Positions 1,164 through 27,683 of a stretch of DNA of 32,000 nt are shown here, in pieces; position 1 is the first letter of the stretch, and the number at the start of each line of letters is the position of its first letter. A program made the position numbers and the translations under genes. This DNA is from Nostoc sp. (GTDB lineage: Bacteria; Cyanobacteriota; Cyanobacteriia; Cyanobacteriales; Nostocaceae): NCBI RefSeq assembly GCF_036917555.1, contig NZ_JBALDD010000092.1, positions 22,762-54,761 of the forward strand, given 5' to 3'. The notes below the pieces were generated by a model. That model made no database searches and was not told where the DNA came from. It worked only from the letters and a program-made list of their open reading frames with translations.

Positions 1164-4100
1164 TCAAGCAGATGTATTGGATGATTGTAACTTAATCCCC
1201 AAAACTTGAGTGTAAGCTCCTCGTGCTTGAGTAACGCCAATTGTGCGTTCGGCTGATTCTATCATCGGACGACGCAAACTCACAACTATAAATTGCGCTT
1301 GTTGTGACTGTTGTTTAATCATTCTAGCTAATCGCTCTACGTTTGCTCCATCTAGGAACATATCTACTTCGTCAAAGGCGTAAAATGGCGATGGACGGTA
1401 ACGTTGCAGGGCAAAGATAAAGCTCAAGGCTGTGAGTGATTTTTCTCCCCCAGACATGGAAGCTAGGCGCTGTACTGGTTTACCTTTGGGATGTGCGACT
1501 AAATTCAGTCCGCTGCTAAAGGGATCTTCAGGATTTTCTAGTTGCAAGAAGCCATCGCCGTCTGAAAGAATGGCAAAAATTGATTGAAAGTTTTCGTTGA
1601 CAGCATCGAAAGCTTCTTTAAAGGCAAGTTGCCGCAACGTGGTAAAGTTTTCAATCCGTAAAAGTAGTTCGGTGCGTTCTCCTTCTAGTGTCTCTAATTT
1701 TTGCGTGAGTTCTTGGAGACGGTTTTGAGTGCGTTCGTATTCTTCCAACGCCAGCATATTTACAGGTTCCATTGCCTGTAAGCGTTTGGTAAGCGATCGC
1801 AATTCTTTCTGCAATTCTTCCAAGTCTACCTGATCTGGAACTTCCGGCAACGGATTTGGTAATTCTGCTCCCACATCCCGCAATTGAGTTTCCAATGCAA
1901 TTAGTTCCTCTCGCCGCTTCTCTTGGGTTTCTTGGAGTTTTTGGATTTCCCATTCCAATTGTTGTTGTCGCAAAAGATGCGATCGCACTTCCAGTTCTGT
2001 AGCGTCACGTTTTTGTTTCTCTTCGCCCAAATTCTGCTCCATTTGGCTGAGTTTAGCGCGGGTTTGGGTGATTTGCTCATCTATCGTTGTGATTTGTGTG
2101 CAAACACGATGAATTGCGTCTCTACAAGAGATTTGTTGGGTTTCATATTCTGTGATTCGTGTCTCCCCTTCTTGGATTTTTTCTTGCAAACGTTGTTGCT
2201 GATTTTCTAAATTTTTTAATCTTTGTTCAGCTTCCCTTAATGCCGTCTCCCGTTGTTGTAATTGTTGCTCTTGGATTTTAATGGTTGCCTGGATTTGTTG
2301 CCATTCACTGGGGGTTTGGGAAGCTTCTAACTCTGCTAAAGCGTGTCGCAATTGTTGCAATTCATTTTCTTGTCCAGGTAATTCCCGCTCTAAAATTTCT
2401 AATCGGGATTGAGCAGTGGCTAACTTTTCGCTGTTTTGTGCGAGTTGCGATCGCGTCCCCTCTAATTGCGCTGTTAAACTCTTAATGTCTTTCTGCAATT
2501 GCTCCAATTGCAACTGCTGTTCGCGTCGCGCCTGACGCGCTTCGGTGAGTTCTTGGGTGAGTTTTTTTGTTTTGGTTGACAAAGTAGCGATCGCTTCAGT
2601 ACAACGCTCTAAAATTCGCTCAATGTCCACCAAGCGAGTTTTTAAAGCGATCGCCTCGTCAGATTCCGCCGCTTCCGCATTCCCAAACCGCAAGGAGGAA
2701 CGCTGGGTGTTACTACCACCAGTCATTGCACCGCTGGTTTCCAGAAGTTCCCCGTCTAAGGTGACGATGCGATACAGTCCTAAATTTTTCCGCGCCGCCT
2801 CCAGGTTGGCAAAAACCACTGTGTTGCCGAAAACATAGCTAAATACATCTTTGTAACGGCGATCGCAATCGACTAAGTTAACAGCATAGTTAACGAAGCC
2901 ACTAGCAAAACGCAGTGTTGCATCTTGAGTAAATTTGGGAGCATGAATTTTATTCAGCGGTAAAAAAGTCGCTCTCCCAGCCCGCTTCTGTTTGAGCAAT
3001 TCAATCCCTGTTGCGGCTACACCATCATCTTCCACCACAATATGTCCCAAGCGTCCCCCAGCAGCCATTTCTAAAGCAAGCTGATGGCGAGGTTCTACCT
3101 TTCCTAACTGCACAACTAAGCCACAAAGTCCAGGCATTCCCGATTGTAAAATGACTTTACTGGCTTGGGTTCCTTGGACTTCTTGCTGTGCTTGCGCTTG
3201 CGCCTCTATTTTATCCAACTGACGTTGTTTTTCTCGTTGTTCAGAAAGTAACCGTTTTTGGGTTTCCTGTTGGATTTGCAGTTCTTGTTCTGTGGCTGAG
3301 AGATTTTGGGCTAAATTTTGGATGGGTTCGCTAGAGGTGTTAAATTCCGTTTCAACTCCACTACACTCAGTTTGTTTTTCTGCTAACAACGGTTCATCAC
3401 GTTCAATTAACTGAGTTTGCTCTTGAATAAGCTGCTGTAACTGATTATTGCGTTCCCTGAGTTGTGCTTGTTCCGTGCGTTGAGGTTCTAGAGTCTGTAG
3501 TAAAGCTTCAATTTGACGGTTGAATGCTGTTTGTTGCTGCACCCACGCTTCTGAAGCCGAGGCGATTTCTGCTGCTGCTTCGCGGGAAGTTTCTAAAGCT
3601 TGCTGTGTTTCATCCCTTTGTTGCTGACAATAGACAATAGATTGCCCCTCTACAACCTGTGTTTTGGCAATTTCTTCTAAAGAATGACGGTGTTTTTGAA
3701 TCTCTTGCTGAGTTTGAGCTAGACGTTTGGCAGTTTCCTGCGTTGCTGTTTGTAATTCCGTTAGCTGACGCTGGAGTTGTTTACGTTCTGCTTCTTGGGT
3801 GGCGAGGGTAGATTGTACCGCCAAAAGTTCCTCTTCTCCCAATGCTTTCACGTGGGCATTGAGTTGTTCAAGTTCAGCAGTTTTTTGGACGATTTGGGAA
3901 TTTAGGTTTGTGAGTTGGGTAGTGAGTTCACTAAAATTGCGATCGCCTGTTTGAATTTCGTGAACTAACTTTTCTTGTTGTGCTTGCAAGGATCGCCATG
4001 ATAAAACAGCTTCCCAAGATTGTTTAGCCAGAAATTCCGTGCGGAGTTTTTGATATTTCTCAGCTTTAGCCCGATCTTGGGAAAGGCGATCGCGCTGTGC

Positions 4101-4898
4101 AGTTAATTCTGTCTCAATAATCCGACAGCTATCTTCCTTTTCCTTCACCTCATCTAAAGTTGATTTGGCTTGGATAATTTTACGATCAAACGCTGCCACC
4201 CCTGCTAATTCATCAATAATTTCCCGTCGTTCCCGCGCATTCATCGAGATAATGCTGGTGACATCCCCTTGCAGTACCACATTGTAGCCTTCAGGATAAA
4301 CCCGGAGGTTACTTAGTTCTCCATGCAACTCTGTCAACGTGCAAGGTACACCATTAATATAGTAATTCGATGTGTAAGTCCCTTGGTGAGTGACTCGTAG
4401 CCTTCTAGTAACACTCCACTCTCCCGATTTTGGACTTCGGCTTCGCTCAGTCGAACGATTTTGGACTTCGGCTTCGCTCAGTCGAACGATTTTGGATTTT
4501 GGATTTTCTTCCCCTACCTCCCCTGCTTCCCCTGCTTCCCCTACCTCCTCTACTTCCTCTACTTCCTCTACTTCCTCTACTTCCTCTACTTCCTCCCTTT
4601 GTGCCTTTGTATCTTTGTGTAAGATTTCATCCGACAAATCAAATGTCACCGTGACGCTAGCCTCAATCGAAGCACGTCCTTTAGCCGTTTGAGTGTTATT
4701 TACCAAATCCGGTAAGCGTTCGGCTCGCATTCCCTTAGAACTGGAGAGTCCCAGGCAAAAGAGCAGTGCATCTAAGATATTAGACTTACCCGAACCATTT
4801 GGCCCAGATATGACAGTACACCCCGGTAGCAAAGGGACAGAAGTACTGCCACCGAAGGATTTGAAGTTCGTAAGTTCCACGCGCTTGATGTGCACCAT
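1164..4898 (-). CDS. smc: chromosome segregation ATPase SMC
   Basis: 1244 aa. Walker A GPNGSGKSN at the N-terminus, long Q/E/L-rich coiled coils and a central hinge (GLCGLVVQLGKVEPRHQLALEMAAGGRL). C-terminal ABC signature LSGGEKSLTALSFIFAL and Walker B FYAFDEVDMFLD. Confidence 0.97.
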   Translation of the reverse strand: MVHIKRVELTNFKSFGGSTSVPLLPGCTVISGPNGSGKSNILDALLFCLGLSSSKGMRAERLPDLVNNTQTAKGRASIEASVTVTFDLSDEILHKDTKAQREEVEEVEEVEEVEEVEEVGEAGEAGEVGEENPKSKIVRLSEAEVQNRSTERSRSPKSGEWSVTRRLRVTHQGTYTSNYYINGVPCTLTELHGELSNLRVYPEGYNVVLQGDVTSIISMNARERREIIDELAGVAAFDRKIIQAKSTLDEVKEKEDSCRIIETELTAQRDRLSQDRAKAEKYQKLRTEFLAKQSWEAVLSWRSLQAQQEKLVHEIQTGDRNFSELTTQLTNLNSQIVQKTAELEQLNAHVKALGEEELLAVQSTLATQEAERKQLQRQLTELQTATQETAKRLAQTQQEIQKHRHSLEEIAKTQVVEGQSIVYCQQQRDETQQALETSREAAAEIASASEAWVQQQTAFNRQIEALLQTLEPQRTEQAQLRERNNQLQQLIQEQTQLIERDEPLLAEKQTECSGVETEFNTSSEPIQNLAQNLSATEQELQIQQETQKRLLSEQREKQRQLDKIEAQAQAQQEVQGTQASKVILQSGMPGLCGLVVQLGKVEPRHQLALEMAAGGRLGHIVVEDDGVAATGIELLKQKRAGRATFLPLNKIHAPKFTQDATLRFASGFVNYAVNLVDCDRRYKDVFSYVFGNTVVFANLEAARKNLGLYRIVTLDGELLETSGAMTGGSNTQRSSLRFGNAEAAESDEAIALKTRLVDIERILERCTEAIATLSTKTKKLTQELTEARQARREQQLQLEQLQKDIKSLTAQLEGTRSQLAQNSEKLATAQSRLEILERELPGQENELQQLRHALAELEASQTPSEWQQIQATIKIQEQQLQQRETALREAEQRLKNLENQQQRLQEKIQEGETRITEYETQQISCRDAIHRVCTQITTIDEQITQTRAKLSQMEQNLGEEKQKRDATELEVRSHLLRQQQLEWEIQKLQETQEKRREELIALETQLRDVGAELPNPLPEVPDQVDLEELQKELRSLTKRLQAMEPVNMLALEEYERTQNRLQELTQKLETLEGERTELLLRIENFTTLRQLAFKEAFDAVNENFQSIFAILSDGDGFLQLENPEDPFSSGLNLVAHPKGKPVQRLASMSGGEKSLTALSFIFALQRYRPSPFYAFDEVDMFLDGANVERLARMIKQQSQQAQFIVVSLRRPMIESAERTIGVTQARGAYTQVLGIKLQSSNTSA
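1793..1800. repeat. HIP1 (GCGATCGC), one representative of many copies
   Basis: Exact octamers inside smc at 1793, 1979, 2447, 2587, 2647, 2859, 3939 and 4086. More copies occur in most other genes of the window. This is the hallmark of cyanobacterial chromosomes. Confidence 0.9.
4426..4597. repeat. composite tandem-repeat block inside the smc head-domain coding region
   Basis: 31-bp unit gattttggacttcggcttcgctcagtcgaac at 4426-4456 and 4457-4487. Then attttgg heptamers (4488-4502), ccctgcttc-type 9-mers, and about six ctacttcct 9-mers (4541-4597). The block is translated as (EEV)n GEAGEAGEVGEENPKSKIVRLSEAEVQNRSTERSRSPKS. Confidence 0.9.
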
Positions 4899-14835: not shown

Positions 14836-16506
14836 TTAGGCTCCGGGTTTTAAATAATCGAAGAGGCGATCGCCTGAATCTGCGCGAATCAATGCTACAA
14901 CTACATCTGGTAAGGTGGCTAAACTGGGGTAAACTAAATAACGCGGTTCCCAACGAGGGCGGAACTTGTCTTTGTAGGCGTGCAGTCCCTTGAAGTTGTA
15001 AAAGCGATTCAAATGGTCGTAAAGATAGTGCAATACTTTTTCCAAACGGCGCGATTCAGGATTTTCTCCAACTCCAGCAAGTGCAGAAAGGCCGAAATTA
15101 AAGCTGTCGTAACCACACTCTTTAAAATGCTGGAGCAGGGAAATAAATAGAAAGTCCATTGTGCCATTTTCAAGAGATGAGCGATGTCGCATCATGTCAA
15201 TAGTCGCTTCGTTAAGTTGGTACTCCCGGATAATGTTGGCAAAGGCGCTAATCTGACCTTCAGGATTATGCACCACAGCAATCTCGCACTCTCGCAGGTA
15301 AGCTTCGTCAAACCAACCTAAAGAAAATTGTTTTTCTGAACCTTGTACCATTTTCAACCATTCATCACTTACAGGTTTGAGGCGATGCAATAAATCATTG
15401 GCGATGGGTGGTTGGTAAAAGTCGATTTGGTATCCTAGTTTAGTTAAACGACTGATTGATGGTCTAAAGTTTTTACCAGCTTTACCTTGTAACGTAAAAC
15501 TTTTTAAGTCAACGATCGCTTCCTCTCCAATCTTGAGTACCTTAAACCCCAATGACTTGTAAAGCTCAACATCATCGGGCATAGTTTGGTAAAAGCCAGG
15601 ATACCAGTCGTTGCGCTGACAAAACTGCCAGAAAGCAATAATTGTCTCTTTGCGGTCTTCAGTGGGGCCGATGGGATCTCCTAATGCGATCGCACCCCGT
15701 CCTTTGGGAACATAAGCAATTACACTATTACCCGAAGGACTGAAATAATAACTTTTATCATTTAAGAGTGTAAGCGCTGCTAAAGAAGAACATCCATATT
15801 GCTCGACAATTTCTTTAGCTCTTTGTCGCTCATTTGTAGTTGCTAGATTCTGCCAAAACACAGGTTGCAACAGCATTACTATTGCATAAGTAATAGTACC
15901 TGCGGCAATAATATAGATAGAATTAGCAAAAAATTCTCCAAATCGACTCTTTGGTTGCAGTCCCCAATTATCCTCAGTGAAGAACATCGCCAAAGTCTGA
16001 ACTATCGCTTCTCGCCAATTAAAGTTCTCTGAAAATTTGCCGTCTAACAAGTAAAATCCAATGGTTCCGTATGCGAGAGTAAATAATAAAGCGCCTATCA
16101 GCACTCTAACTCCCCGTGCGATGGAAGGACGGTCTGATTGCGCCGTAAAAAAATGGCGCATCAAGATTAATTGCACCAATAAAACTCCAGAGAGTAGACT
16201 TTCTTCATAGTCCAGTCCCTTCAGCAAGTGGCTGCAAATAGAAATTATTAGTAAAGCAATGGTTAGTAACCAGGCTATTCTTTTCCGGCGTAATAAATTA
16301 GTAGCAAGTGTTAATAAAATAAACCCAGTTAATGCTGCAAATATATGACCACTGGCACGAATTTCAAATGGTAAAAGTTCCTTTAACCAGTGAGTCCGCC
16401 CGTACAGGTTAGGTGTCACTGCTGATAATAAATTTACTACTCCGACTAAACCTGTTAGGAAAGCTGCACTCCAAAGTCCAATCTGAGTTTTTAAATTATT
16501 TGTCAT
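14836..16506 (-). CDS. aminoacyl-phosphatidylglycerol synthase, MprF C-terminal half (6 TM plus DUF2156/LPG-synthase domain)
   Basis: From memory, strong colinear match to the MprF synthase domain. Shared motifs: GEEAIVDLKSFTLQGKAGKNFR, VSDEWL, EKQFSLGWFDEAYL, DMMRHR...GTMDFLFISLL, FNFGLSALAGVG, YNFKGLHAYKDKFRPRWEPRYLVY. Confidence 0.9.
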   Translation of the reverse strand: MTNNLKTQIGLWSAAFLTGLVGVVNLLSAVTPNLYGRTHWLKELLPFEIRASGHIFAALTGFILLTLATNLLRRKRIAWLLTIALLIISICSHLLKGLDYEESLLSGVLLVQLILMRHFFTAQSDRPSIARGVRVLIGALLFTLAYGTIGFYLLDGKFSENFNWREAIVQTLAMFFTEDNWGLQPKSRFGEFFANSIYIIAAGTITYAIVMLLQPVFWQNLATTNERQRAKEIVEQYGCSSLAALTLLNDKSYYFSPSGNSVIAYVPKGRGAIALGDPIGPTEDRKETIIAFWQFCQRNDWYPGFYQTMPDDVELYKSLGFKVLKIGEEAIVDLKSFTLQGKAGKNFRPSISRLTKLGYQIDFYQPPIANDLLHRLKPVSDEWLKMVQGSEKQFSLGWFDEAYLRECEIAVVHNPEGQISAFANIIREYQLNEATIDMMRHRSSLENGTMDFLFISLLQHFKECGYDSFNFGLSALAGVGENPESRRLEKVLHYLYDHLNRFYNFKGLHAYKDKFRPRWEPRYLVYPSLATLPDVVVALIRADSGDRLFDYLKPGA

Positions 16507-16517
16507 TTTTCATTAGT

Positions 16518-16584
16518 AGTTAGGAGTGAGGAGTTAGAAGTTAGGAGTTTTCAATTTTTAACTCTTAACTCCTAACTCCTAACT
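16518..16584. repeat. STRR-type heptamer inverted-repeat hairpin
   Basis: gttagga-type heptamers x4 (16518-16549), loop ttcaattttt, then aactcct-type heptamers x3-4 (16560-16584). It covers the stop codon of the upstream esterase gene and ends 12 nt before the mprF-like ATG. Confidence 0.8.
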
Positions 16585-17473
16585 TTTTAAACTGTTCTCC
16601 GACATAGGAGAGTGAATCTTTAAGATGTTTATGAAAGTAGTTCCAGCCTACATTAGCACCAGATAAACCATGACCTCCAGGAAATGCATAAAATACGTGA
16701 GCAATGCCTAATTTATTTAAGGTTTCGTTGAAGGCTTTGGTAGAAGCTAGCAAATTAGTATCGTTCAAACCAGCATCTAGGTAAACACGCAATCGCTTCC
16801 TATCTTGAACTGTTAGCTGTTGCACAATTTGTTGAGGACTATTTTGTGAATCGCTGTCATCAGTAAAGTAACCGCTATGGCTAAACAAAATCTGAAAGTT
16901 GTTGAGATAGCGTAATCCGATATTAAATGCACCCCATCCTCCAGAAGATATACCTCCTAGCGCCCAAAATTGGGGTTCTTCCAAAGTGCGATAGCGCGAC
17001 TTGACAACTTGTACTAATTCTGAACCAATCAAAGTTCCCACTTTGCCATTCGGCCCATCAAAGTAATCGGGGTCGTATAAAGGACTAGAACCGCGATTAT
17101 CATTACCATCAGGTGTAATCACAATCGATGGCGGTAATTTTCCACTTTGATAAAGTTCATGCAATACGTTTAAGAGTGCGTATTTATCAGCATAAGCACG
17201 AGCATCATCATGACCACCGTGTAGTAAAAATATCAGAGGGTAGCGCTTTTGGGGATTTTTGCTATAAGTAGGGGGCAAAATCACGCCGTAGTTACGGACT
17301 GCACCCATCACTTGGGAGTTGAAGGTTGCTAATTGAAACTTTAGCCCAGTATTTGCCGCTTTTTTGGGTGGGTCTAGTTGTGGCGCACCTAAGATGAATA
17401 CATAATAATAACCAGCAGTAGTAAGAAGTGCGATCGCTCCTACCAAGCTAATTAACAATTTATAAATCTTCAT
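16565..17473 (-). CDS. membrane-anchored alpha/beta-hydrolase, esterase family (esterase D / putative-esterase type)
   Basis: N-terminal anchor helix (LLISLVGAIALLTTAGYYYVFIL), oxyanion-type LLHGGH, and nucleophile elbow GGISSGGWGA. Paralogue of the next gene. Confidence 0.82.
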   Translation of the reverse strand: MKIYKLLISLVGAIALLTTAGYYYVFILGAPQLDPPKKAANTGLKFQLATFNSQVMGAVRNYGVILPPTYSKNPQKRYPLIFLLHGGHDDARAYADKYALLNVLHELYQSGKLPPSIVITPDGNDNRGSSPLYDPDYFDGPNGKVGTLIGSELVQVVKSRYRTLEEPQFWALGGISSGGWGAFNIGLRYLNNFQILFSHSGYFTDDSDSQNSPQQIVQQLTVQDRKRLRVYLDAGLNDTNLLASTKAFNETLNKLGIAHVFYAFPGGHGLSGANVGWNYFHKHLKDSLSYVGEQFKKLGVRS

Positions 17474-20372: not shown

Positions 20373-23135
20373 TTGCCCCTGAGTGGGGTGGTGGAATTTG
20401 TCGGACGTGAGGAAGAATTGAAAAATCTTCACCAACTTTTGCAGGATAATAAACAAGTTGCCATTGCTGCGATCGCTGGGATGGGTGGAGTTGGTAAAAC
20501 AGAACTTGCCCTGCAATATGCCATCCAGCGCCGCGAAACATATAACGGTGGGCTTTGCTGGTTGCTGGCAAAAACTGGAGATGTGGGCATTCAAGTTGTG
20601 CAGTTTGCGAGAACGCAGCTGGATTTAAAGCCGCCAGAAGATTTTGATTTACTCGCCCAAGTGCAATATTGTTGGCGGCGTTGGCGTGAAGGTGATGTGC
20701 TGCTAGTTTTGGATGATGTAAGTGACTACGAGCAAGTCAAACCTTACTTACAGTCGCTACCTTCTCGGTTTAAAGTGTTGATAACTACGCGCCAGAACTT
20801 GGGACGCATTGCACAGTTATCTTTGGATGTGCTGCAACCAGAGGCGGCGCTGGAGTTATTAAAGTATTTACTCAAAGAAACACCGGGGCGAATTGAAAAA
20901 GAATTAGCTTTAGCAAATCAGTTGTGTGAATGGCTGGGATATTTACCTTTGGGCGTGGAATTAGTTGGGCGATATTTGGCGCGGAAACAGGATTTATCTT
21001 TAGCAGAAATGTTGCGGCGGTTGGAGAACAAGCGATTAGAACAAGCTGCTCTTAATGAACCAGAAGCCGACATGACAGCACAACGAGGTGTGTTAGCAGC
21101 CTTTGAGTTGAGTTGGCAAGAATTAGAGGATGACGAGAAGCAATTAGGTTGTTTATTGAGTTTATTTGCCGCCGCACCAATACCCTGGAATTTGGTGGAA
21201 GAGTGTGTAATGGAGAACTTGGGTAAAAATAAAAATAAAATCCCACGTCTACTGGCCTTATTAGACATATCCTCTGGTGGAAGCTTTACAGTGTCTAGGC
21301 TGCAACTTAGTTTCTGGAGATGTCTATTGTTAAGCCTCAACTGGATATGTAACATACGATTTAAGCTTGAGAGCAAGTCTGTAGAGAAAAATGTAGAAAA
21401 TTTAGAGAAAATCAGAGACGATAGCTTAGTAAATCTACATTTACTCCAGCGCAAAGGTCAGGGAATCTATCAACTGCATCCACTGTTGCGGGAGTTTTTC
21501 CAATACAAGTTTAGAGGGTTAGATGATGCAGAGAAATTTATGCGATCGCTTTGTAAGGAAATGGTAGCAATCGCCAAAGGGATTCCTAAAACACCCACCC
21601 TTGAGCAAATCACCGCCGTCTCCATCACCATACCTCATATAGCCGAAGTAGCGAATAATCTAATTCAATGGGTCAGCGATGAAAATTTATTTTGGGTATT
21701 TACTGGTAACGCTAATTTTTACGATGGTCAGGGATTATATGATCAGGCAGAACTCTGGTATGAGCAGTGTATAGAAGTCACAAAAAAACGGTTGGGTGAG
21801 CAACATCCAGATTTCGCTGCTAGTCTCAACAACCTAGCAGGACTCTACAAATCCCAAGGCAGATACAGCAAAGCCGAACCTATTTACATCCAAGCTTTAG
21901 CACTCAACCGCAAGCGGTTGGGAAAAAAACATCCATCTGTCGCCAGCAGCCTCAACAACCTAGCAGGACTCTACAAATCCCAAGGCAGATACAGCGAAGC
22001 TGAATCCCTTTTAATCCAAGCTTTAACACTCAGGCGCAAGCGGCTGGGAAAAAAACATCCAGATTTCGCTACTACTCTCAACAACCTAGCAGGACTCTAC
22101 GAATCCCAAGGCAGATACAGCGAAGCCGAACCTCTTTATGTCCAAGCTTTAGCACTCAGGCGTAAACTGCTGGGAGAAGAACATCCAGATGTTGCTACTA
22201 GTCTCAACAACCTAGCAACACTCTACAACTCCCAAGGTAGATACAGCGAAGCCGAACCTCTTTATGTCCAAGCTTTAGCACTCAGGCGCAAGTTGCTGGG
22301 AGAAGAACATCCAGATGTCGCTACTAGTCTCAACAACCTAGCAACACTCTACAACTCCCAAGGCAAATACAGAGAAGCCGAACCTTTATCCATGCAAGCT
22401 TTAGCACTCAGGCGCAAGCTGCTGGGAGAAGAACATCCAGATGTCGCTGCTAGTCTCAACAACCTAGCAGCACTCTATGAATCCCAAGGCAGATACAGCG
22501 AAGCCGAACCTCTTTACGTCCAAGCTTTAGCACTCAGGCGCAAGCTGCTGGGAGAAGAACATCCAGATGTCGCTGCTAGTCTTAATAACCTAGCAGCACT
22601 TTATGAATCCCAAGGCAGATACAGCGAAGCCGAACCTCTTTATGTCCAAGCTTTAGCACTCAGGCGCAAACTGCTGGGAGAAGAACATCCAGATGTCGCT
22701 GCTAGTCTTAATAACCTAGCAGCACTCTATGAATCCCAAGGCAGATACAGCGAAGCCGAACCTCTTTACGTCCAAGCTTTAGCACTCTGCCGCAAACTGC
22801 TAGGAGAAGAACATCCATCTGTCGCTGCTAGCCTCAACAACCTAGCAGGACTCTATAACTTCCAAGGAAGATGCAGCGAAGCCGAAACCCTTTACAGCCA
22901 AGCCTTGGCACTCAAGCGCAAGTTGCTGGGAGAAGAACATCCATCTGTCGCTGTTAGCCTCTACAACCTAGCAGGACTCTATAAATCCCAAGGCAGATAC
23001 AGCGAAGCCGAACCCCTTTACATCCAGGCTTTGAATATTTGTGAGCGACGGTTAGGGATGGATCATCCCAAGACTGTTACTTCTCGTGATAATTTAGCAT
23101 ATATTCGCGATCGCCTCTCCCAAAATCCAGAATAA
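20373..23135 (+). CDS. NB-ARC (STAND NTPase) plus TPR-repeat protein, bacterial NLR-like; start codon uncertain
   Basis: Walker A GMGGVGKTELA, Walker B LLVLDDV, sensor KVLITTR and GLPL-type GYLPLGVEL. Then ten 42-aa TPR units (LNNLAGLYKSQGRYSEAEPLY type). The track start is a TTG with no visible SD. The open frame continues upstream to the TGA at 20319. Confidence 0.9.
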   Translation: MPLSGVVEFVGREEELKNLHQLLQDNKQVAIAAIAGMGGVGKTELALQYAIQRRETYNGGLCWLLAKTGDVGIQVVQFARTQLDLKPPEDFDLLAQVQYCWRRWREGDVLLVLDDVSDYEQVKPYLQSLPSRFKVLITTRQNLGRIAQLSLDVLQPEAALELLKYLLKETPGRIEKELALANQLCEWLGYLPLGVELVGRYLARKQDLSLAEMLRRLENKRLEQAALNEPEADMTAQRGVLAAFELSWQELEDDEKQLGCLLSLFAAAPIPWNLVEECVMENLGKNKNKIPRLLALLDISSGGSFTVSRLQLSFWRCLLLSLNWICNIRFKLESKSVEKNVENLEKIRDDSLVNLHLLQRKGQGIYQLHPLLREFFQYKFRGLDDAEKFMRSLCKEMVAIAKGIPKTPTLEQITAVSITIPHIAEVANNLIQWVSDENLFWVFTGNANFYDGQGLYDQAELWYEQCIEVTKKRLGEQHPDFAASLNNLAGLYKSQGRYSKAEPIYIQALALNRKRLGKKHPSVASSLNNLAGLYKSQGRYSEAESLLIQALTLRRKRLGKKHPDFATTLNNLAGLYESQGRYSEAEPLYVQALALRRKLLGEEHPDVATSLNNLATLYNSQGRYSEAEPLYVQALALRRKLLGEEHPDVATSLNNLATLYNSQGKYREAEPLSMQALALRRKLLGEEHPDVAASLNNLAALYESQGRYSEAEPLYVQALALRRKLLGEEHPDVAASLNNLAALYESQGRYSEAEPLYVQALALRRKLLGEEHPDVAASLNNLAALYESQGRYSEAEPLYVQALALCRKLLGEEHPSVAASLNNLAGLYNFQGRCSEAETLYSQALALKRKLLGEEHPSVAVSLYNLAGLYKSQGRYSEAEPLYIQALNICERRLGMDHPKTVTSRDNLAYIRDRLSQNPE
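21798..23057 (+). repeat. ten tandem 126-bp (42-codon) TPR units
   Basis: The period was verified by hand. The units start at 21798 plus n x 126. The units at 22428, 22554 and 22680 are nearly identical at DNA level. Confidence 0.95.
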
Positions 23136-23219
23136 GCTAGTTTTGTGCAAAGCGTACCGTGATAAAACTGAAAAGTGCGATCGCCTAGACTAAAATTCAT
23201 ATTGAATTAAGTAAAAATG

Positions 23220-23500
23220 CCATTCGACTTACTCAAAATGAGCTTTGATTTACTCAAAAGCAGCTTTGACTTTCTCAAAAGCAGCTTTGACTTTCTCATT
23301 TTGGTGTTTTCCGCAAGCAAAAGCAGCTTTGACTTTCTCAAAAGCAGCTTTGACTTTCTCATTTTGGTGTTTTCCGCAAGCAAAAGAAGCTTTGACTTTC
23401 TCAAAAGGAGCTTTTGCTTTCTCATTTTAGTGTTTTCCGCAAGCAAAAGCAGCTTTTATTTTCTCAAACCCCAGTTTGCTTTCTCATTTGAGTAATTCAC
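23220..23500. repeat. phased tandem array, 21-bp and 42-bp modules giving a 63-bp period
   Basis: Module A is agctttgactttctcaaaagc (21 bp). Module B is the same with a 21-bp insert, attttggtgttttccgcaagc (42 bp). AB units lie at 23262-23324, 23325-23387 and 23388-23450, with degenerate copies on both sides. The palindromic core AAAGCAGCTTT or a close variant begins at 23237, 23257, 23278, 23320, 23341, 23383, 23404 and 23446. Confidence 0.9.
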
Positions 23501-23596
23501 GCATTCATTTTGATATATATTGAGCCGAAAGCTTGCGTAAGCGTAGCCCGTCGGACACATCGCTCTATAAAAGAAGTGTAATCTACAGGCGATCGC

Positions 23597-23956
23597 TTAA
23601 AAAGGAATCCATTCCAACTGATCTATCCATTCTTGTGCCTCAGTAGTCTCCCAAACTAGCAATAGTTCTTGTGCTAATTGCCCTATTGGTATTCTCAGAC
23701 GCAACCAGAATAAGCCCCAAATATGTCCACCTGCTGCCCAATGTGCTTCTAAATGAGCCGGCATACTAGCGCGGTTATCTGTCATTAACAGCCGTTGAGA
23801 TAATTGTAGATAACCCAACACATCAGGATCTAAAGTTCCTAATGTTGGTGCATTACTTTCACCCACACGTAAAATATCTATCGCAGGGTTAAGACGAAGA
23901 ACAGCTACTTTCAGACGCGGTGACAAATTTTCATCGAGCAAAAAACGAACCTTCAC
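23597..23956 (-). CDS. DUF5615 family protein (PIN-like, toxin-like partner of DUF433)
   Basis: GTG start overlapping the upstream stop (TAGTG). N-terminus MKVRFLLDENLSPRL is typical of the family (from memory). Confidence 0.78.
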   Translation of the reverse strand: MKVRFLLDENLSPRLKVAVLRLNPAIDILRVGESNAPTLGTLDPDVLGYLQLSQRLLMTDNRASMPAHLEAHWAAGGHIWGLFWLRLRIPIGQLAQELLLVWETTEAQEWIDQLEWIPF

Positions 23957-24285
23957 TAAGCACTTACCTGACGTTCATTTCTTTGAGTTTTTAAGATTCT
24001 GAGGCGCTGTACCAAAGATGAAGGATTTGCAACTGATTCTTGGTAACGCTGTTCGCGCCATATTGCCAGACGTGACAGATAAGCTTCGATATCGGCGCGA
24101 TTATGGAGATAGTAAGTAATAGTAGCGTGAATTTGCTCCAAACTCAAACTAGGTAGATTAGCAGCAATTTCTTCCGGCGTATATCCTTCAAAGTAATAAT
24201 CAAGTACATTGTCAATACCAATGCGGTGTCCTTTCAGGCGAATATCATCGGCTGATAAAAAGTCAAAATAATCTTCTAGTTGCAT
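23956..24285 (-). CDS. DUF433 family protein (antitoxin-like)
   Basis: GHRIGIDNVLDYYFEGYTPEEIAANLPSLSLEQIHATITYY is the typical DUF433 core. A 1-nt overlap with the downstream DUF5615 gene implies translational coupling. Confidence 0.82.
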   Translation of the reverse strand: MQLEDYFDFLSADDIRLKGHRIGIDNVLDYYFEGYTPEEIAANLPSLSLEQIHATITYYLHNRADIEAYLSRLAIWREQRYQESVANPSSLVQRLRILKTQRNERQVSA

Positions 24286-24421
24286 TGGTTTACCCTAAAT
24301 GGAGTTCATAACTGTATTATCTCGCCTCAAAGCCTTGAATTATAGTGTTATCAAGGTTAATGCTCTAGAAAAAAAGTGTAAATTTACAAGCGATCGCCTA
24401 AAATTGGAATCTACTTCTTAC

Positions 24422-24784
24422 TTATATAGGCAATCGCCTCACCCGGAAAGTTTCATTACTTACAGAAACAATTGCTCCTACCTCTAAATATTCTTGACAT
24501 TCACTCAAAACATTTATCAAACGTTCATTAATTGCATCATAGTTGTCATTTCCTAATCTAAACAAAATAACACTGGGTAAACTATCTCCACTCACAGCTA
24601 AAAGTTGAGCAAAATCTAAATCTATAGTTAATAAAATTCTCCCTTCTGTACAGGCTTTAATTAAAATTTCATTATCTGGTAGTCTTTGCAAACCTTCATC
24701 ACGTAAATGCACAACATCATAACCATCGCTACGCAACCAAGATACAGTACGTAGTGAAATTCCCATATCTACCAAAAACTTCAT
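24422..24784 (-). CDS. DUF5615 family protein (second copy)
   Basis: I prefer the ATG at 24784 (MKFLVDMGISLRTVSWLR...), which lies 8 nt after the DUF433 stop. The longer track ORF (to 24835) would overlap the upstream gene. Confidence 0.78.
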   Translation of the reverse strand: MKFLVDMGISLRTVSWLRSDGYDVVHLRDEGLQRLPDNEILIKACTEGRILLTIDLDFAQLLAVSGDSLPSVILFRLGNDNYDAINERLINVLSECQEYLEVGAIVSVSNETFRVRRLPI

Positions 24785-24792
24785 TTTACTGG

Positions 24793-25023
24793 TTAAGCAA
24801 TTTTGAATGGATAAACCCGTTCTTGAGTCAACCACGCTGCATAAAGTAAAGATTGACGAATATCCTCTGCTTCTAAATCAGGATATTCTTCTAAAATTTC
24901 TTCTACAGGTTTTCCATTAGCTACCAAATTGACTAATAAAGAAACCGGAATTCGCATCCCACGAATGCAAGCTTGTCCACCCATAATGCTAGGGTCAAAT
25001 GTAATTCTATCTAGACCTAACAT
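24793..25023 (-). CDS. DUF433 family protein (second copy)
   Basis: ITFDPSIMGGQACIRGMRIPVSLLVNLVANGKPVEEILEEYPDLEAEDIRQSLLYAA is the canonical DUF433 signature. Confidence 0.85.
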   Translation of the reverse strand: MLGLDRITFDPSIMGGQACIRGMRIPVSLLVNLVANGKPVEEILEEYPDLEAEDIRQSLLYAAWLTQERVYPFKIA

Positions 25024-25811: not shown

Positions 25812-27683
25812 ATGGCGCTCATAGTTCAGAAATACGGTGGTACATCTGTCGGTTCAGTGGAACGTATTCAAGCTGTTGCACAGCGTGTTTATAAAACTGT
25901 TAAAGCTGGAAACTCTATTGTCGTAGTGGTTTCGGCAATGGGCAAAACCACCGATGGACTCGTCAAACTAGCTACTGAAATTTCTCCAAATCCTAATCGC
26001 CGGGAAATGGATATGCTGCTTTCTACTGGCGAACAAGTAACCATTGCCTTACTCAGTATGGCTTTGCAGGAACTCGGACAACCTGCAATTTCCATGACTG
26101 GCGCTCAGGTAGGAATTGTTACTGAGGCTGAACACAGCCGCGCTCGGATTTTGCATATTGAAACTACTCGCCTAACTCGCCACATAAATGCAGGTAAAGT
26201 AGTTGTAGTAGCTGGCTTCCAAGGTATATCCAGCGTCGGAGAGATGGAAATTACGACTTTGGGTCGTGGTGGTTCCGACACCTCAGCAGTGGCGATCGCA
26301 GCCGCATTAAAAGCGAATTTTTGCGAAATTTATACAGACGTTCCAGGGATTCTCACTACAGACCCCCGCTTAGTTGCCGAAGCCCAGTTGATGGATGCCA
26401 TCAGCTGCGATGAAATGTTGGAATTAGCTAGCTTGGGCGCAAAAGTGCTGCATCCCCGTGCTGTGGAAATTGCCCGTAACTATGGTGTTCCCCTTGTAGT
26501 TAGGTCTAGCTGGACAGATCAACCAGGTACTTGGGTGACATCAGCCAAACCCCAAGGGCGATCGCTAATCAATCTAGAAATTGCCCGTCCAGTAGATGCT
26601 GTAGAATTTGACACTGACCAAGCAAAGGTCGCTTTGTTGCGTGTACCCGACAAACCAGGCATTGCAGCCAGATTATTTGGCGAAATTTCTCGGCAAAGAG
26701 TAGACGTAGATTTGATTATTCAGTCAGTTCATGAAGGTAACAGTAATGACATTGCCTTTACAGTGACAAGACCAGTATTAAGACGGGCAGAAGCAGTAGC
26801 AACAGCGATCGCCCCAGCACTGAGGAGTCAATCTAACCCCAAGTTGGAAGAAGCCGAAGTAATGGTAGAACATAACATTGCCAAAGTCAGCATTGCAGGT
26901 GCAGGAATGATTGGCCGTCCTGGTGTAGCTGCAAAGATGTTCGCTACCTTAGCTGAAGCAGGCGTGAATATTCAAATGATTTCCACCAGCGAAGTGAAAG
27001 TAAGTTGTGTAGTCGATGCAGCCGAATGCGATCGCGCCGTCACAGCACTCTGTACCGCCTTTGAGATCAAAGTAGGGGACAAGGGGACAAGGGGACAAGG
27101 GGGACAAGGAAGAATCATTGAAAAAACTTCTCCCTTGTCTCCCCACTCTCCCCTGTCTGCTTTGTCTTCTTCATCTTTTCCCGTTCGCGGCGTTGCTCTC
27201 GATTTGAATCAAGCGCGTCTTGCTATTCGCCAATTGCCAGATCGTCCAGGAATGGCGGCGAAGTTGTTTGGATTATTAGCGCAGCATAATATCAGTGTTG
27301 ATATGATTATCCAATCTCAGCGCTGCCGGGTGATTGATGGTGTTCCCAGACGAGATATTGCCTTTACAGTCTCGCGGATAGACGGGGAAAATGCCAGAGA
27401 AATGCTCACCCAAGTAGCAGCAGAATTAGGATGGGATGAAGTTGTTTTAGATAGTGCGATCGCTAAGGTGAGTATTGTCGGTGCAGGGATGCTGGGACAA
27501 CCAGGTGTTGCTGCTAAAATGTTTGAAGCTTTAGCCCAACAACAAATCAATATTCAAATGATTGCCACTTCAGAAATCAAAATTAGTTGTGTTGTGGCGC
27601 AAGAGCAAGGTGTTAAAGCTTTGCAAGCCATTCATGCAGCCTTTGAACTAGCTGGTAGCGAGAAGTTTTTTGTGCCAGTATAA
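25812..27683 (+). CDS. lysC: aspartate kinase, long cyanobacterial form with two tandem ACT-domain pairs
   Basis: N-terminal KYGGTSVG, catalytic core GRGGSDT, and duplicated regulatory segments (VSIAGAGMIGRPGVAAKMF... and VSIVGAGMLGQPGVAAKMF...). Confidence 0.95.
   Translation: MALIVQKYGGTSVGSVERIQAVAQRVYKTVKAGNSIVVVVSAMGKTTDGLVKLATEISPNPNRREMDMLLSTGEQVTIALLSMALQELGQPAISMTGAQVGIVTEAEHSRARILHIETTRLTRHINAGKVVVVAGFQGISSVGEMEITTLGRGGSDTSAVAIAAALKANFCEIYTDVPGILTTDPRLVAEAQLMDAISCDEMLELASLGAKVLHPRAVEIARNYGVPLVVRSSWTDQPGTWVTSAKPQGRSLINLEIARPVDAVEFDTDQAKVALLRVPDKPGIAARLFGEISRQRVDVDLIIQSVHEGNSNDIAFTVTRPVLRRAEAVATAIAPALRSQSNPKLEEAEVMVEHNIAKVSIAGAGMIGRPGVAAKMFATLAEAGVNIQMISTSEVKVSCVVDAAECDRAVTALCTAFEIKVGDKGTRGQGGQGRIIEKTSPLSPHSPLSALSSSSFPVRGVALDLNQARLAIRQLPDRPGMAAKLFGLLAQHNISVDMIIQSQRCRVIDGVPRRDIAFTVSRIDGENAREMLTQVAAELGWDEVVLDSAIAKVSIVGAGMLGQPGVAAKMFEALAQQQINIQMIATSEIKISCVVAQEQGVKALQAIHAAFELAGSEKFFVPV
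27073..27170. repeat. hairpin-type repeat element inserted in frame in the lysC inter-ACT linker
   Basis: ggggacaa octamers x3-4 (27075-27109). Spacer aagaatcattgaaaaaacttc. Inverted C/T-rich arm tcccttgtctccccactctcccctgtctgctttgtc. Aligns base for base with 9650-9710. Confidence 0.8.

Follow-up and report, generated by a model that had tools for sequence, protein, structure and literature searches.

The BOX elements of Streptococcus pneumoniae and the BIME of enterobacteria (REP mosaics) are dispersed, intergenic, chromosomal repeats in which conserved end modules surround a variable tandem string of internal modules. They differ in copy number between strains and lie in either orientation, and their host function is debated; the same can be said of the repeat family described here. 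In cyanobacteria, the STRR heptamer repeats and the SDR small dispersed repeats are said to have been described by Elhai et al. in 2008. We examined a tandem array in a 32,000-nt stretch of DNA from Nostoc sp. (NCBI RefSeq assembly GCF_036917555.1, contig NZ_JBALDD010000092.1, positions 22,762 to 54,761 of the forward strand). This whole stretch is called the window below, and positions are those of the window unless a locus or accession is given. The array lies directly downstream of an NLR-like gene with NB-ARC and TPR domains, where an initial annotation made from the sequence alone had reported 21-, 42- and 63-bp repeats with a palindromic core.

We found that the array forms the repetitive center of a non-coding element that is conserved, and that this element is one copy of a dispersed intergenic family that extends throughout the Nostocales. 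The internal repeats turn over rapidly, and the flanks and a core module are under constraint. The whole conserved element in the window measures about 460 bp, from the NLR stop codon (23136) to a HIP1 octamer at 23590-23597.

Structure of the array

Parsing of the sequence into modules placed the repeat run at 23213-23506, with the module string BBBBA-BBA-BBA-BC-T (B22 B21 B21 B21 A21 B21 B21 A21 B21 B21 A21 B21 C20 T21, lengths in nt), i.e., three 63-bp units. Tandem Repeats Finder detected a 63-bp period at 23255-23489 (3.7 copies, 91% matches, score 384) and overlapping rows of 21-bp period at 23214-23280, 23226-23361 and 23381-23424. The tandem array downstream of the NLR gene is real. 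The 21-bp module (AGCTTTGACTTTCTCAAAAGC) and the 21-bp insert (ATTTTGGTGTTTTCCGCAAGC) of the initial annotation were both recovered; the former occurs four times at ≤3 mismatches and the latter three times, with zero expected by chance, and both recur at this array only. The three 63-bp units with "decayed" 5' copies also stand in the parse. A profile of the family units detected no second array in the 32-kb window. The features are as follows.

20373-23135, + strand: NB-ARC + TPR (NLR-like) gene (Pfam: NB-ARC 3.8e-15, TPR_12 3.9e-171), which in the Nostoc lineage always has the element at its 3' end.
23136-23212, + strand: leader, unique and conserved, reaching from the stop codon of the NB-ARC/TPR gene up to the modules.
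23177-23184, + strand: HIP1 in the leader.
23191-23196, + strand: -10-like TAAAAT in the leader.
23213-23297, + strand: four B-type modules (22+21+21+21 nt), the first two being the "decayed" 5' copies.
23298-23486, + strand: three 63-bp units, each of one A and two B modules, with C replacing the second B of the last unit.
23298, 23361 and 23424, + strand: A module, ATTTTGGTGTTTTCCGCAAGC, the 21-bp insert of the initial annotation.
B module, + strand: AAAA-N5-TTTGACTT(A/T)CTC, from the module parse.
23466-23485, + strand: C module, 20 nt, AAACCCCAGTTTGCTTTCTC, from the module parse.
T module (terminal), + strand: ATTTGAGTAATTCACGCATTC, from the module parse.
23486-23537, + strand: T module plus unique trailer ATTTTGATATATATTGAGCCGAAAGCTTGCG, kept in the orthologues and at loci L006, L012, L024 and L027.
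23538-23558, + strand: 21-nt insert TAAGCGTAGCCCGTCGGACAC splitting a HIP1 octamer (gcg/.../atcgc), present in N. punctiforme and absent from NMS9.
23559-23597, + strand: distal trailer, conserved, ending at HIP1 (23590-23597) beside the stop codon of the convergent DUF5615-like gene.

Loci L006, L012, L024 and L027 are unrelated loci that share the leader type of the window, and the T module and trailer are conserved there too. The genes flanking the array, as identified by Pfam at 18.7-27.7 kb of the window, are NB-ARC/TPR, DUF433/DUF5615, Uma2 and aspartate kinase.

A dispersed family in the Nostocales

Representative genomes were scanned with an exact 18-mer from the A module; the figures that follow refer to the matches listed. 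The 18-mer was found in at least 120 stretches, ∼110 of them cyanobacterial (Nostocales or Leptolyngbya-like). The Nostocales genera were Nostoc, Tolypothrix, Fischerella, Chlorogloeopsis, Calothrix, Komarekiella, Halotia, Aulosira and Spirirestis, and the ∼10 single matches in other phyla are no more than chance would give. In several genomes, 3-4 separate loci occur. Clustering of the flanking proteins gave at least 45 distinct gene contexts, with neighbors as diverse as NifU-Rieske/NHL, Lin0512/PaO, fatty-acid desaturase, MtnA and restriction-modification genes. The arrays are 200-550 bp long, often at contig ends, and each family locus has a unique leader and trailer around a variable string of 20/21-nt modules. 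Identical leader and trailer types also occur at unrelated loci, which indicates that the dispersed unit is the whole leader-array-trailer.

An apparent orientation bias relative to the flanking genes (43 vs. 10 in the raw counts) was rejected, as it was gone once orthologous loci were dereplicated: (+,+) 12, (-,-) 9, (+,-) 8 and (-,+) 6. At L085 and L090 the array is antisense to both large neighboring genes. No terminal inverted repeats were detected in leader-versus-trailer comparisons (median score 8 vs. 7 in the control; 5 of 97 reached ≥12). No target-site duplication was evident at the aligned boundaries, where no empty sites were found for a strict comparison. Plasmids gave three records only, all weak matches, with no annotation covering a plasmid copy, and viral contigs gave two single matches; a phage or plasmid origin was rejected on these counts.

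Inheritance and constraint at the locus

True orthologues of the locus, recognized by the aspartate kinase and Ser/Thr kinase-TPR gene downstream, were found at L031, L041, L082, L097, L098, L101 and in N. punctiforme (L131), and in all of them the array lies directly 3' of the NB-ARC/TPR gene. The copy in N. punctiforme PCC 73102 is located at approximately 5,718,223-5,718,593 of CP001037.1, an 8.2-Mb chromosome. N. linckia NIES-25 and Desmonostoc geniculatum have neither the NLR gene nor the array upstream of aspartate kinase. Paralogous NB-ARC/TPR genes (57-67% identity) in other contexts end with the same leader and array, and with these paralogues counted the pairing of gene and array was seen at ≥10 loci besides N. 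punctiforme. We conclude that the element and the NB-ARC/TPR gene have been inherited together, vertically, at this locus from a time that predates the split from N. punctiforme.

The number and order of modules vary among Nostoc species, as the initial annotation had predicted for the copy number in relatives. Locus L098 has the same architecture as the window and L041 has one extra BBA unit. NMS9 (L031) reads BBBCA-BCA-BCA-BC-T, and the related locus C117 (L113) has only B-A-B-C-T. The N. punctiforme-specific variants CCACAAAC and AATCTCGC are common to all units of that array, which points to concerted evolution. Module number and order change through unequal recombination or conversion.

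The flanks behaved differently from control intergenic DNA. Outside a 32-nt insert, the leader is ∼91% identical to that of N. punctiforme, and the alignment is nearly base for base, in NMS9 as well. The trailer and the sequence downstream of it are 88% identical, even though the downstream genes differ. Four control intergenic regions compared with N. punctiforme showed 59-76% identity; the 3' coding sequence of the NLR gene showed 79% and the coding sequence of aspartate kinase 92%. Since the identity of the non-repetitive flanks exceeds that of control intergenic DNA, they are under constraint, and the comparison indicates that the unique flanks are kept by purifying selection. Conservation at near-coding levels is evidence of function, and the persistence of the core module across genera at orthologous sites implies a trans-acting partner.

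Small insertions were seen in and near the element. The SDR5 small mobile repeat has been reported to insert between nt 3 and 4 of HIP1 (PMC4390886). Judged by its placement in HIP1 (23535-23563 with the split octamer), the trailer insert TAAGCGTAGCCCGTCGGACAC is an SDR5-type small element. The leader HIP1 is intact in the window (23177-23184) and is split by 21-32-nt inserts among orthologues and paralogues (L036, L113, L114 and L131), e.g., ttagcgaagctcaccgaaggt; these are further SDR5-type insertions, which alter the spacing within the leader. Farther downstream (23597-24835), DUF433/DUF5615 toxin-antitoxin-like cassettes are present, absent or replaced (HicAB, MazE) at L031, L041, L098 and L131. 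This turnover at orthologous loci marks the stretch from the trailer to Uma2 as an insertion hotspot.

Coding status

Three open reading frames (ORFs) cover the array, at 23217-23495 (+, 92 aa), 23245-23430 (+, 61 aa) and 23207-23446 (-, 79 aa). The initial annotation had listed them and had argued that they are no evidence for coding. We reached the same view: the array is not protein-coding. The 92-aa ORF starts with ATG at 23217 and is intact in the window, where all module lengths were counted as multiples of 3. Four stops interrupt this frame in N. punctiforme PCC 73102 when the orthologous array is read from the leader ATG, which is conserved, and in NMS9 the frame drifts through 62-bp units. 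The orthologous array in N. punctiforme (L131 4923-5204) is annotated as a 93-aa hypothetical protein in another frame, which is closed in the window; that gene call is probably spurious.

Database searches with the 92-aa ORF returned 24 "hypothetical proteins", nearly all unnamed or from Nostoc/Tolypothrix. Within a single polypeptide, their matched segments are translations of one DNA in each of the three frames (FLILVFSASK, FSFWCFPQAK, LSHFGVFRKQK), so the conserved thing is the DNA and not a protein. The exact product of the window ORF is found in no gene on record; Pfam gave a weak HALZ match below the cut-off only, and NCBIfam gave nothing. In 97 delimited family arrays, the core-to-core spacings were mostly 62 (×62), 63 (×49), 42 (×25), 84 (×8) and 83 (×5) bp. 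The commonest unit is 62 bp, and hence the reading frame is not kept; only 86 of 156 spacings are divisible by three, and only 33 of 97 arrays are ≥90% open in any + frame. Arrays of this family have recurrently been mis-annotated as hypothetical proteins, among them the 93-aa N. punctiforme ORF and the 24 database "proteins", and recognition of the family corrects the annotation.

The conserved module, the palindrome and helical phasing

The best-conserved block of the family is the A module plus its flanks, CTCATTTTGGTGTTTTCCGCAAGCAAAA (∼28 nt). In unit profiles ATTTTGGTGTTTTCCGCAAGCAAAA is near-invariant, the next 5 nt are free, and TTT(G/T)ACTT(A/T)CTC then follows with moderate conservation. 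The family sample was ascertained by an exact 18-mer that lies within this block, which bears on its apparent invariance. We counted the pattern as constraint because the A module is near-invariant while the adjoining 5 nt vary freely.

The initial annotation had described a palindrome (AAAGC-A-GCTTT or a one-base variant) at each module junction. Of the sites that it listed, those at 23257, 23278, 23320, 23341 and 23446 match the core AAAGCAGCTTT exactly and those at 23383 and 23404 are one base off, as claimed; the core at 23237 (AAATGAGCTTT), given as a one-base variant, is actually two bases off. As a key site the palindrome failed, and the conserved part is instead the "insert" (A) module. 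GCAGC represents 4 of the 64 distinct variants of the variable 5-mer at module junctions. In the 64 distinct junctions compared, position pair (4,18) carries C.A, a mismatch, 43 times and pair (5,17) carries A.G 32 times; the inner pairs are at chance level, and no covariation was detected at palindrome positions. These statistics rule out a conserved palindromic site; the palindrome seen in this array is a chance product of its variable 5-mer. The DIF-like TCCGCA pointed out in the A module did not hold up either, as in N. punctiforme it reads TCCACA, TCTACA or TACGCA.

Helical spacing held across the family: the common spacings of 62, 63, 42, 84 and 83 bp are all close to n × 10.4-10.5 bp. 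The AA/TT periodicity of the array at 10.5 bp ranked second of 635 windows in the 32 kb (p ∼0.015 and 0.004 vs. shuffled-unit arrays).

RNA folding of the whole array gave no signal (z-scores -0.64 for the + strand and -1.89 for the - strand). RNAalifold on 31 units yielded -2.4 kcal/mol w/o covariation, and no terminator-like site or per-unit hairpin was found. Comparison of the whole window with Rfam was negative at the gathering threshold, and 23100-23620 gave eight weak, irrelevant hits at E ≤ 10. The leader contains a promoter-like CTGAAA-17-TAAAAT; this candidate was rejected, as 21-32-nt inserts between the -35-like and -10-like hexamers break the spacing in orthologues.

The linked 140-aa gene

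Besides the NLR-like NB-ARC/TPR genes, the family is tightly linked to a second gene family, not present in the window, that encodes an uncharacterized 140-aa protein. In 17 array-selected loci, the array lies ∼130-150 bp upstream of this conserved gene on the same strand. Four homologues picked regardless of arrays (Calothrix PCC 7507, Mastigocladopsis, Anabaena UHCC 0399 and "Lyngbya" HA4199) all had the array, which makes 21 of 21 loci examined (L019, L034, L056, L057, L062, L068, L075, L078, L084, L092, L100, L106, L108, L115, L117, L120, L121 and L124-L127). A strongly conserved, non-coding block of ∼110 nt (TGTAGCAAAA..ATTTGCCGGAATTCTCTCAGGCTGATC..AAGGTAAAGAATATTAACCGTAC) separates the array from the start codon, and at all 21 loci the array sits just upstream of this promoter/5' untranslated region (5'UTR)-like block. 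A candidate micro-ORF in the spacer was discarded since neither its start codon nor its frame is conserved. The wider neighborhood of the gene varies.

The protein has 371 homologues with a mean column identity of 81%. Its predicted structure is a helical hairpin with basic ends (predicted local distance difference test score 74.6), and no significant match was found in Pfam, NCBIfam, PADLOC, PHROGs, a PDB sequence search or Foldseek. Speculatively, and with a low probability in our estimate, the array family and this helical basic protein could form one Nostocales-wide system, in which this protein or another dedicated factor would load onto the arrays, either as DNA or as RNA. Control of the NLR-like gene would then be coupled to that system through the copy fused to the 3' end of the NB-ARC/TPR gene, and the repeats, far from being passive, would be a previously unrecognized regulatory layer of the nucleoprotein or ribonucleoprotein kind.

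Interpretation of the array

The reading that we tentatively prefer, without holding it probable, is that the array is a phased set of recognition modules for a putative sequence-specific factor acting on DNA. The ∼28-nt module CTCATTTTGGTGTTTTCCGCAAGCAAAA would be presented in several copies that face one side of the A/T-tract-phased DNA at intervals of 4 or 6 helical turns, and the putative factor would load on them cooperatively. The effect might be local gene control or chromosome organization, by a mechanism like that of iteron, centromere or BIME-type nucleoprotein arrays. This reading is favored because of the spacing, the A/T-tract phasing, the free orientation, the lack of RNA structure, and the site upstream of a promoter-like block at the 140-aa loci; arrays of binding sites usually sit upstream of promoter/5'UTR blocks. 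The non-coding nature of the family, its dispersal and the constraint on flanks and A module also count in its favor. The tractable model N. punctiforme PCC 73102 carries an orthologous copy, so that direct testing is possible.

Several observations weigh against a protein-binding platform. Invariance of the A module is incomplete, as seen from CCACAAAC in N. punctiforme and GTAGATTCAGCAAGC in Calothrix PCC 7507. Variants at loci found independently of the 18-mer are CCACAAGC, and GTAGATTCAGCAAGC in Calothrix PCC 7507 and Anabaena UHCC 0399. For one protein site, ∼25-28 nt of uninterrupted conservation is a long stretch. Of the two AA/TT periods, 7 nt gives the stronger signal (0.19, vs. 0.11 at 10.5 nt); the 21-nt module therefore resembles three heptads, and the phasing may simply follow from 3 × 7 nt. 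Finally, the fixed leader-to-trailer polarity, the T-rich, G-poor + strand and the sense linkage to two gene families are features that one could expect of an RNA as well.

Such an RNA is the first alternative to consider, and we regard it as somewhat unlikely. It would be a repeat-RNA gene transcribed from the leader, acting whole or as 42/63-nt units, as a protein-binding or sponge RNA with a layout like that of ToxI or NsiR1. Along with the polarity, the unique flanks are conserved in a gene-like manner, the leader carries the -10-like TAAAAT, and the + strand of family arrays, T-rich and G-poor, has fewer stop trinucleotides. The position also fits: in the window lineage and in the paralogues the array immediately follows the NLR gene on its sense strand, and it comes directly before the 140-aa gene in every locus examined, including the four chosen independently. 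Against it, the leader inserts disrupt the promoter spacing in orthologues; terminator, stable fold, covariation and Rfam match were all missing in the searches above; and in robust cases such as L085 and L090 the array is antisense to both large neighbors.

Also unlikely in our view is a selfish or neutral repeat, i.e., a dispersed minisatellite-bearing element (BOX/BIME/SDR-like) that has spread among Nostocales genomes, is maintained by homogenization and has no host function at this locus. The 45 or more contexts in either orientation, the leader and trailer types common to unrelated loci and the frequent location at contig ends would all be expected of it. So would the rapid concerted evolution with species-specific variants in every N. 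punctiforme unit and varying module order, the SDR5-type inserts nested in and near the element, and the way the 21-nt A module behaves as an insert in the 21-nt B module. However, the arrays remain stable at orthologous slots across species and genera, and their unique flanks are well above neutral intergenic conservation. They are also nearly absent from plasmids and viral contigs, lack terminal inverted repeats (median 8 vs. control 7), and have no transposase partner that we could see.

A cluster of DnaA boxes, with arrays that titrate or position DnaA as datA does, is very improbable. The A-module 9-mer TTTTCCGCA occurs three times in the window, and N. punctiforme has TTTTCCACA twice, one and zero mismatches from the cyanobacterial DnaA-box consensus, TTTTCCACA. 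The matches are directly seen in both sequences, share one orientation and a regular spacing, and several arrays occur per chromosome. Some arrays, however, use the module GTAGATTCAGCAAGC, w/o a box; conservation reaches well past the 9-mer, and the resemblance of a 9-mer is weak. Finally, a small repetitive heptad protein (MPFDLLKMSFDLLKSSFDFLK..., 23217-23495) is close to refuted: the intact ORF with its ATG, which is kept in many leaders, the window module lengths and the calling of such ORFs elsewhere by gene callers are outweighed by the four stops in N. punctiforme, the frame drift in NMS9 and a family in which 62-bp units are the majority, with neither a recorded gene for the exact product nor a Pfam or NCBIfam match above threshold.

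Other repeats in the window

The window contains further tandem repeats. Adjacent, reverse-complementary heptamer runs, TTAGGAG ×5.3 and TAACTCC ×3.7, lie at 16513-16584 and form an STRR-type hairpin between the ORFs at 14836-16506 (-) and 16565-17473 (-). The aspartate kinase ORF (25812-27683) contains AGGGGACA ×4.4 and TCTCCCCTG ×3.3 at 27074-27158; its homologues range from 607 to 641 aa, and the length difference is possibly located at these repeats. The TPR region of the NB-ARC gene (21787-23032) is a 126-bp tandem repeat (×9.9) with 88% DNA identity, which suggests ongoing homogenization between TPR units. In the 1244-aa ORF at 1164-4898 (-), a perfect 31-bp repeat (×2.3) is followed by a 9-bp repeat, CTTCCTCTA ×9.8, at 4425-4619.

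Comparison with known systems

The initial annotation had excluded a CRISPR array, and we agree: every 21-nt block is itself repeated, unique spacers are absent, and no cas gene was found among the neighbors. Miniature inverted-repeat transposable elements differ from the family in that the latter has no terminal inverted repeats and no duplication evident at the aligned boundaries.

A likeness to NsiR1 had also been proposed. Both consist of tandem ∼60-nt units in the same group of organisms, the heterocystous cyanobacteria. NsiR1 is excluded, since Rfam has no match to the window array even at E ≤ 10. In further contrast to NsiR1, no DIF (TCCGGA) promoter is kept between the window and N. 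punctiforme, and the units show no terminator hairpin. No gene identified by Pfam beside the array suggests hetF, which itself was not searched for.

The antitoxin RNA ToxI of type III toxin-antitoxin systems resembles the 140-aa loci in layout, with an array, a short spacer and a small gene on the same strand in all cases examined. In the window, by contrast, the next gene is convergent, and the array has no gene after it on the + strand. Searches with the 140-aa protein found no likeness to ToxN/AbiQ and nothing in PADLOC, Pfam or the PDB, and the repeats of the window family are mosaic and not identical.

Iterons, sopC and parC share with the array direct repeats of ∼21 or 42-63 bp in helical phase, rich in A/T tracts, and a palindromic core in the window copy. 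Iterons are phased tandem repeats of ∼17-22 bp, and the window has modules of 20/21 nt at spacings of 21, 42 and 63. The differences are that no rep gene lies near the array, that the orthologue is chromosomal (8.2 Mb), and that a genome carries many sites; unlike sopC/parS, the family does not keep an inverted-repeat core (64 junctions). parA/parB (sopAB) were absent from the genes scanned at 18.7-27.7 kb and from the scanned representative flanking genes elsewhere. With no rep or par gene nearby and a chromosomal, dispersed family, the array is not a member of the iteron or sopC class, and the unconserved palindrome also speaks against the likeness to sopC noted initially. The underlying idea of a phased array of binding sites is still viable.

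BOX and BIME have no sequence relationship to the window family, whose modules measure 20/21 nt. The end modules of the family are not complementary and form no stem of the boxA/boxC type (median 8 vs. 7; z -0.6, -1.9), and the family is stably inherited at orthologous sites across genera. We know of no RAYT or other transposase partner for it.

Like STRR and SDR, the array is intergenic in Nostocaceae and has a 7-nt sub-periodicity (AA/TT 0.19). Each C module contains one STRR1-like CCCCAGT; the window units are heterogeneous 20/21-mers and not the identical heptamers of STRR. The 21-nt A module looks inserted in a 21-nt host module and falls within the SDR size range of 21-27 nt, and an SDR5-type insert lies inside the trailer. 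The difference from SDR is that the whole leader-array-trailer recurs across loci, not a single 21-nt piece. No description of this array turned up in literature searched by sequence string and keyword, a set that did not include the SDR consensus sequences of Elhai et al. 2008. The array family may overlap a published SDR family. Among known kinds of element, the array comes closest to BOX and BIME, which are mosaic interspersed repeats, and to STRR and SDR in the cyanobacteria.

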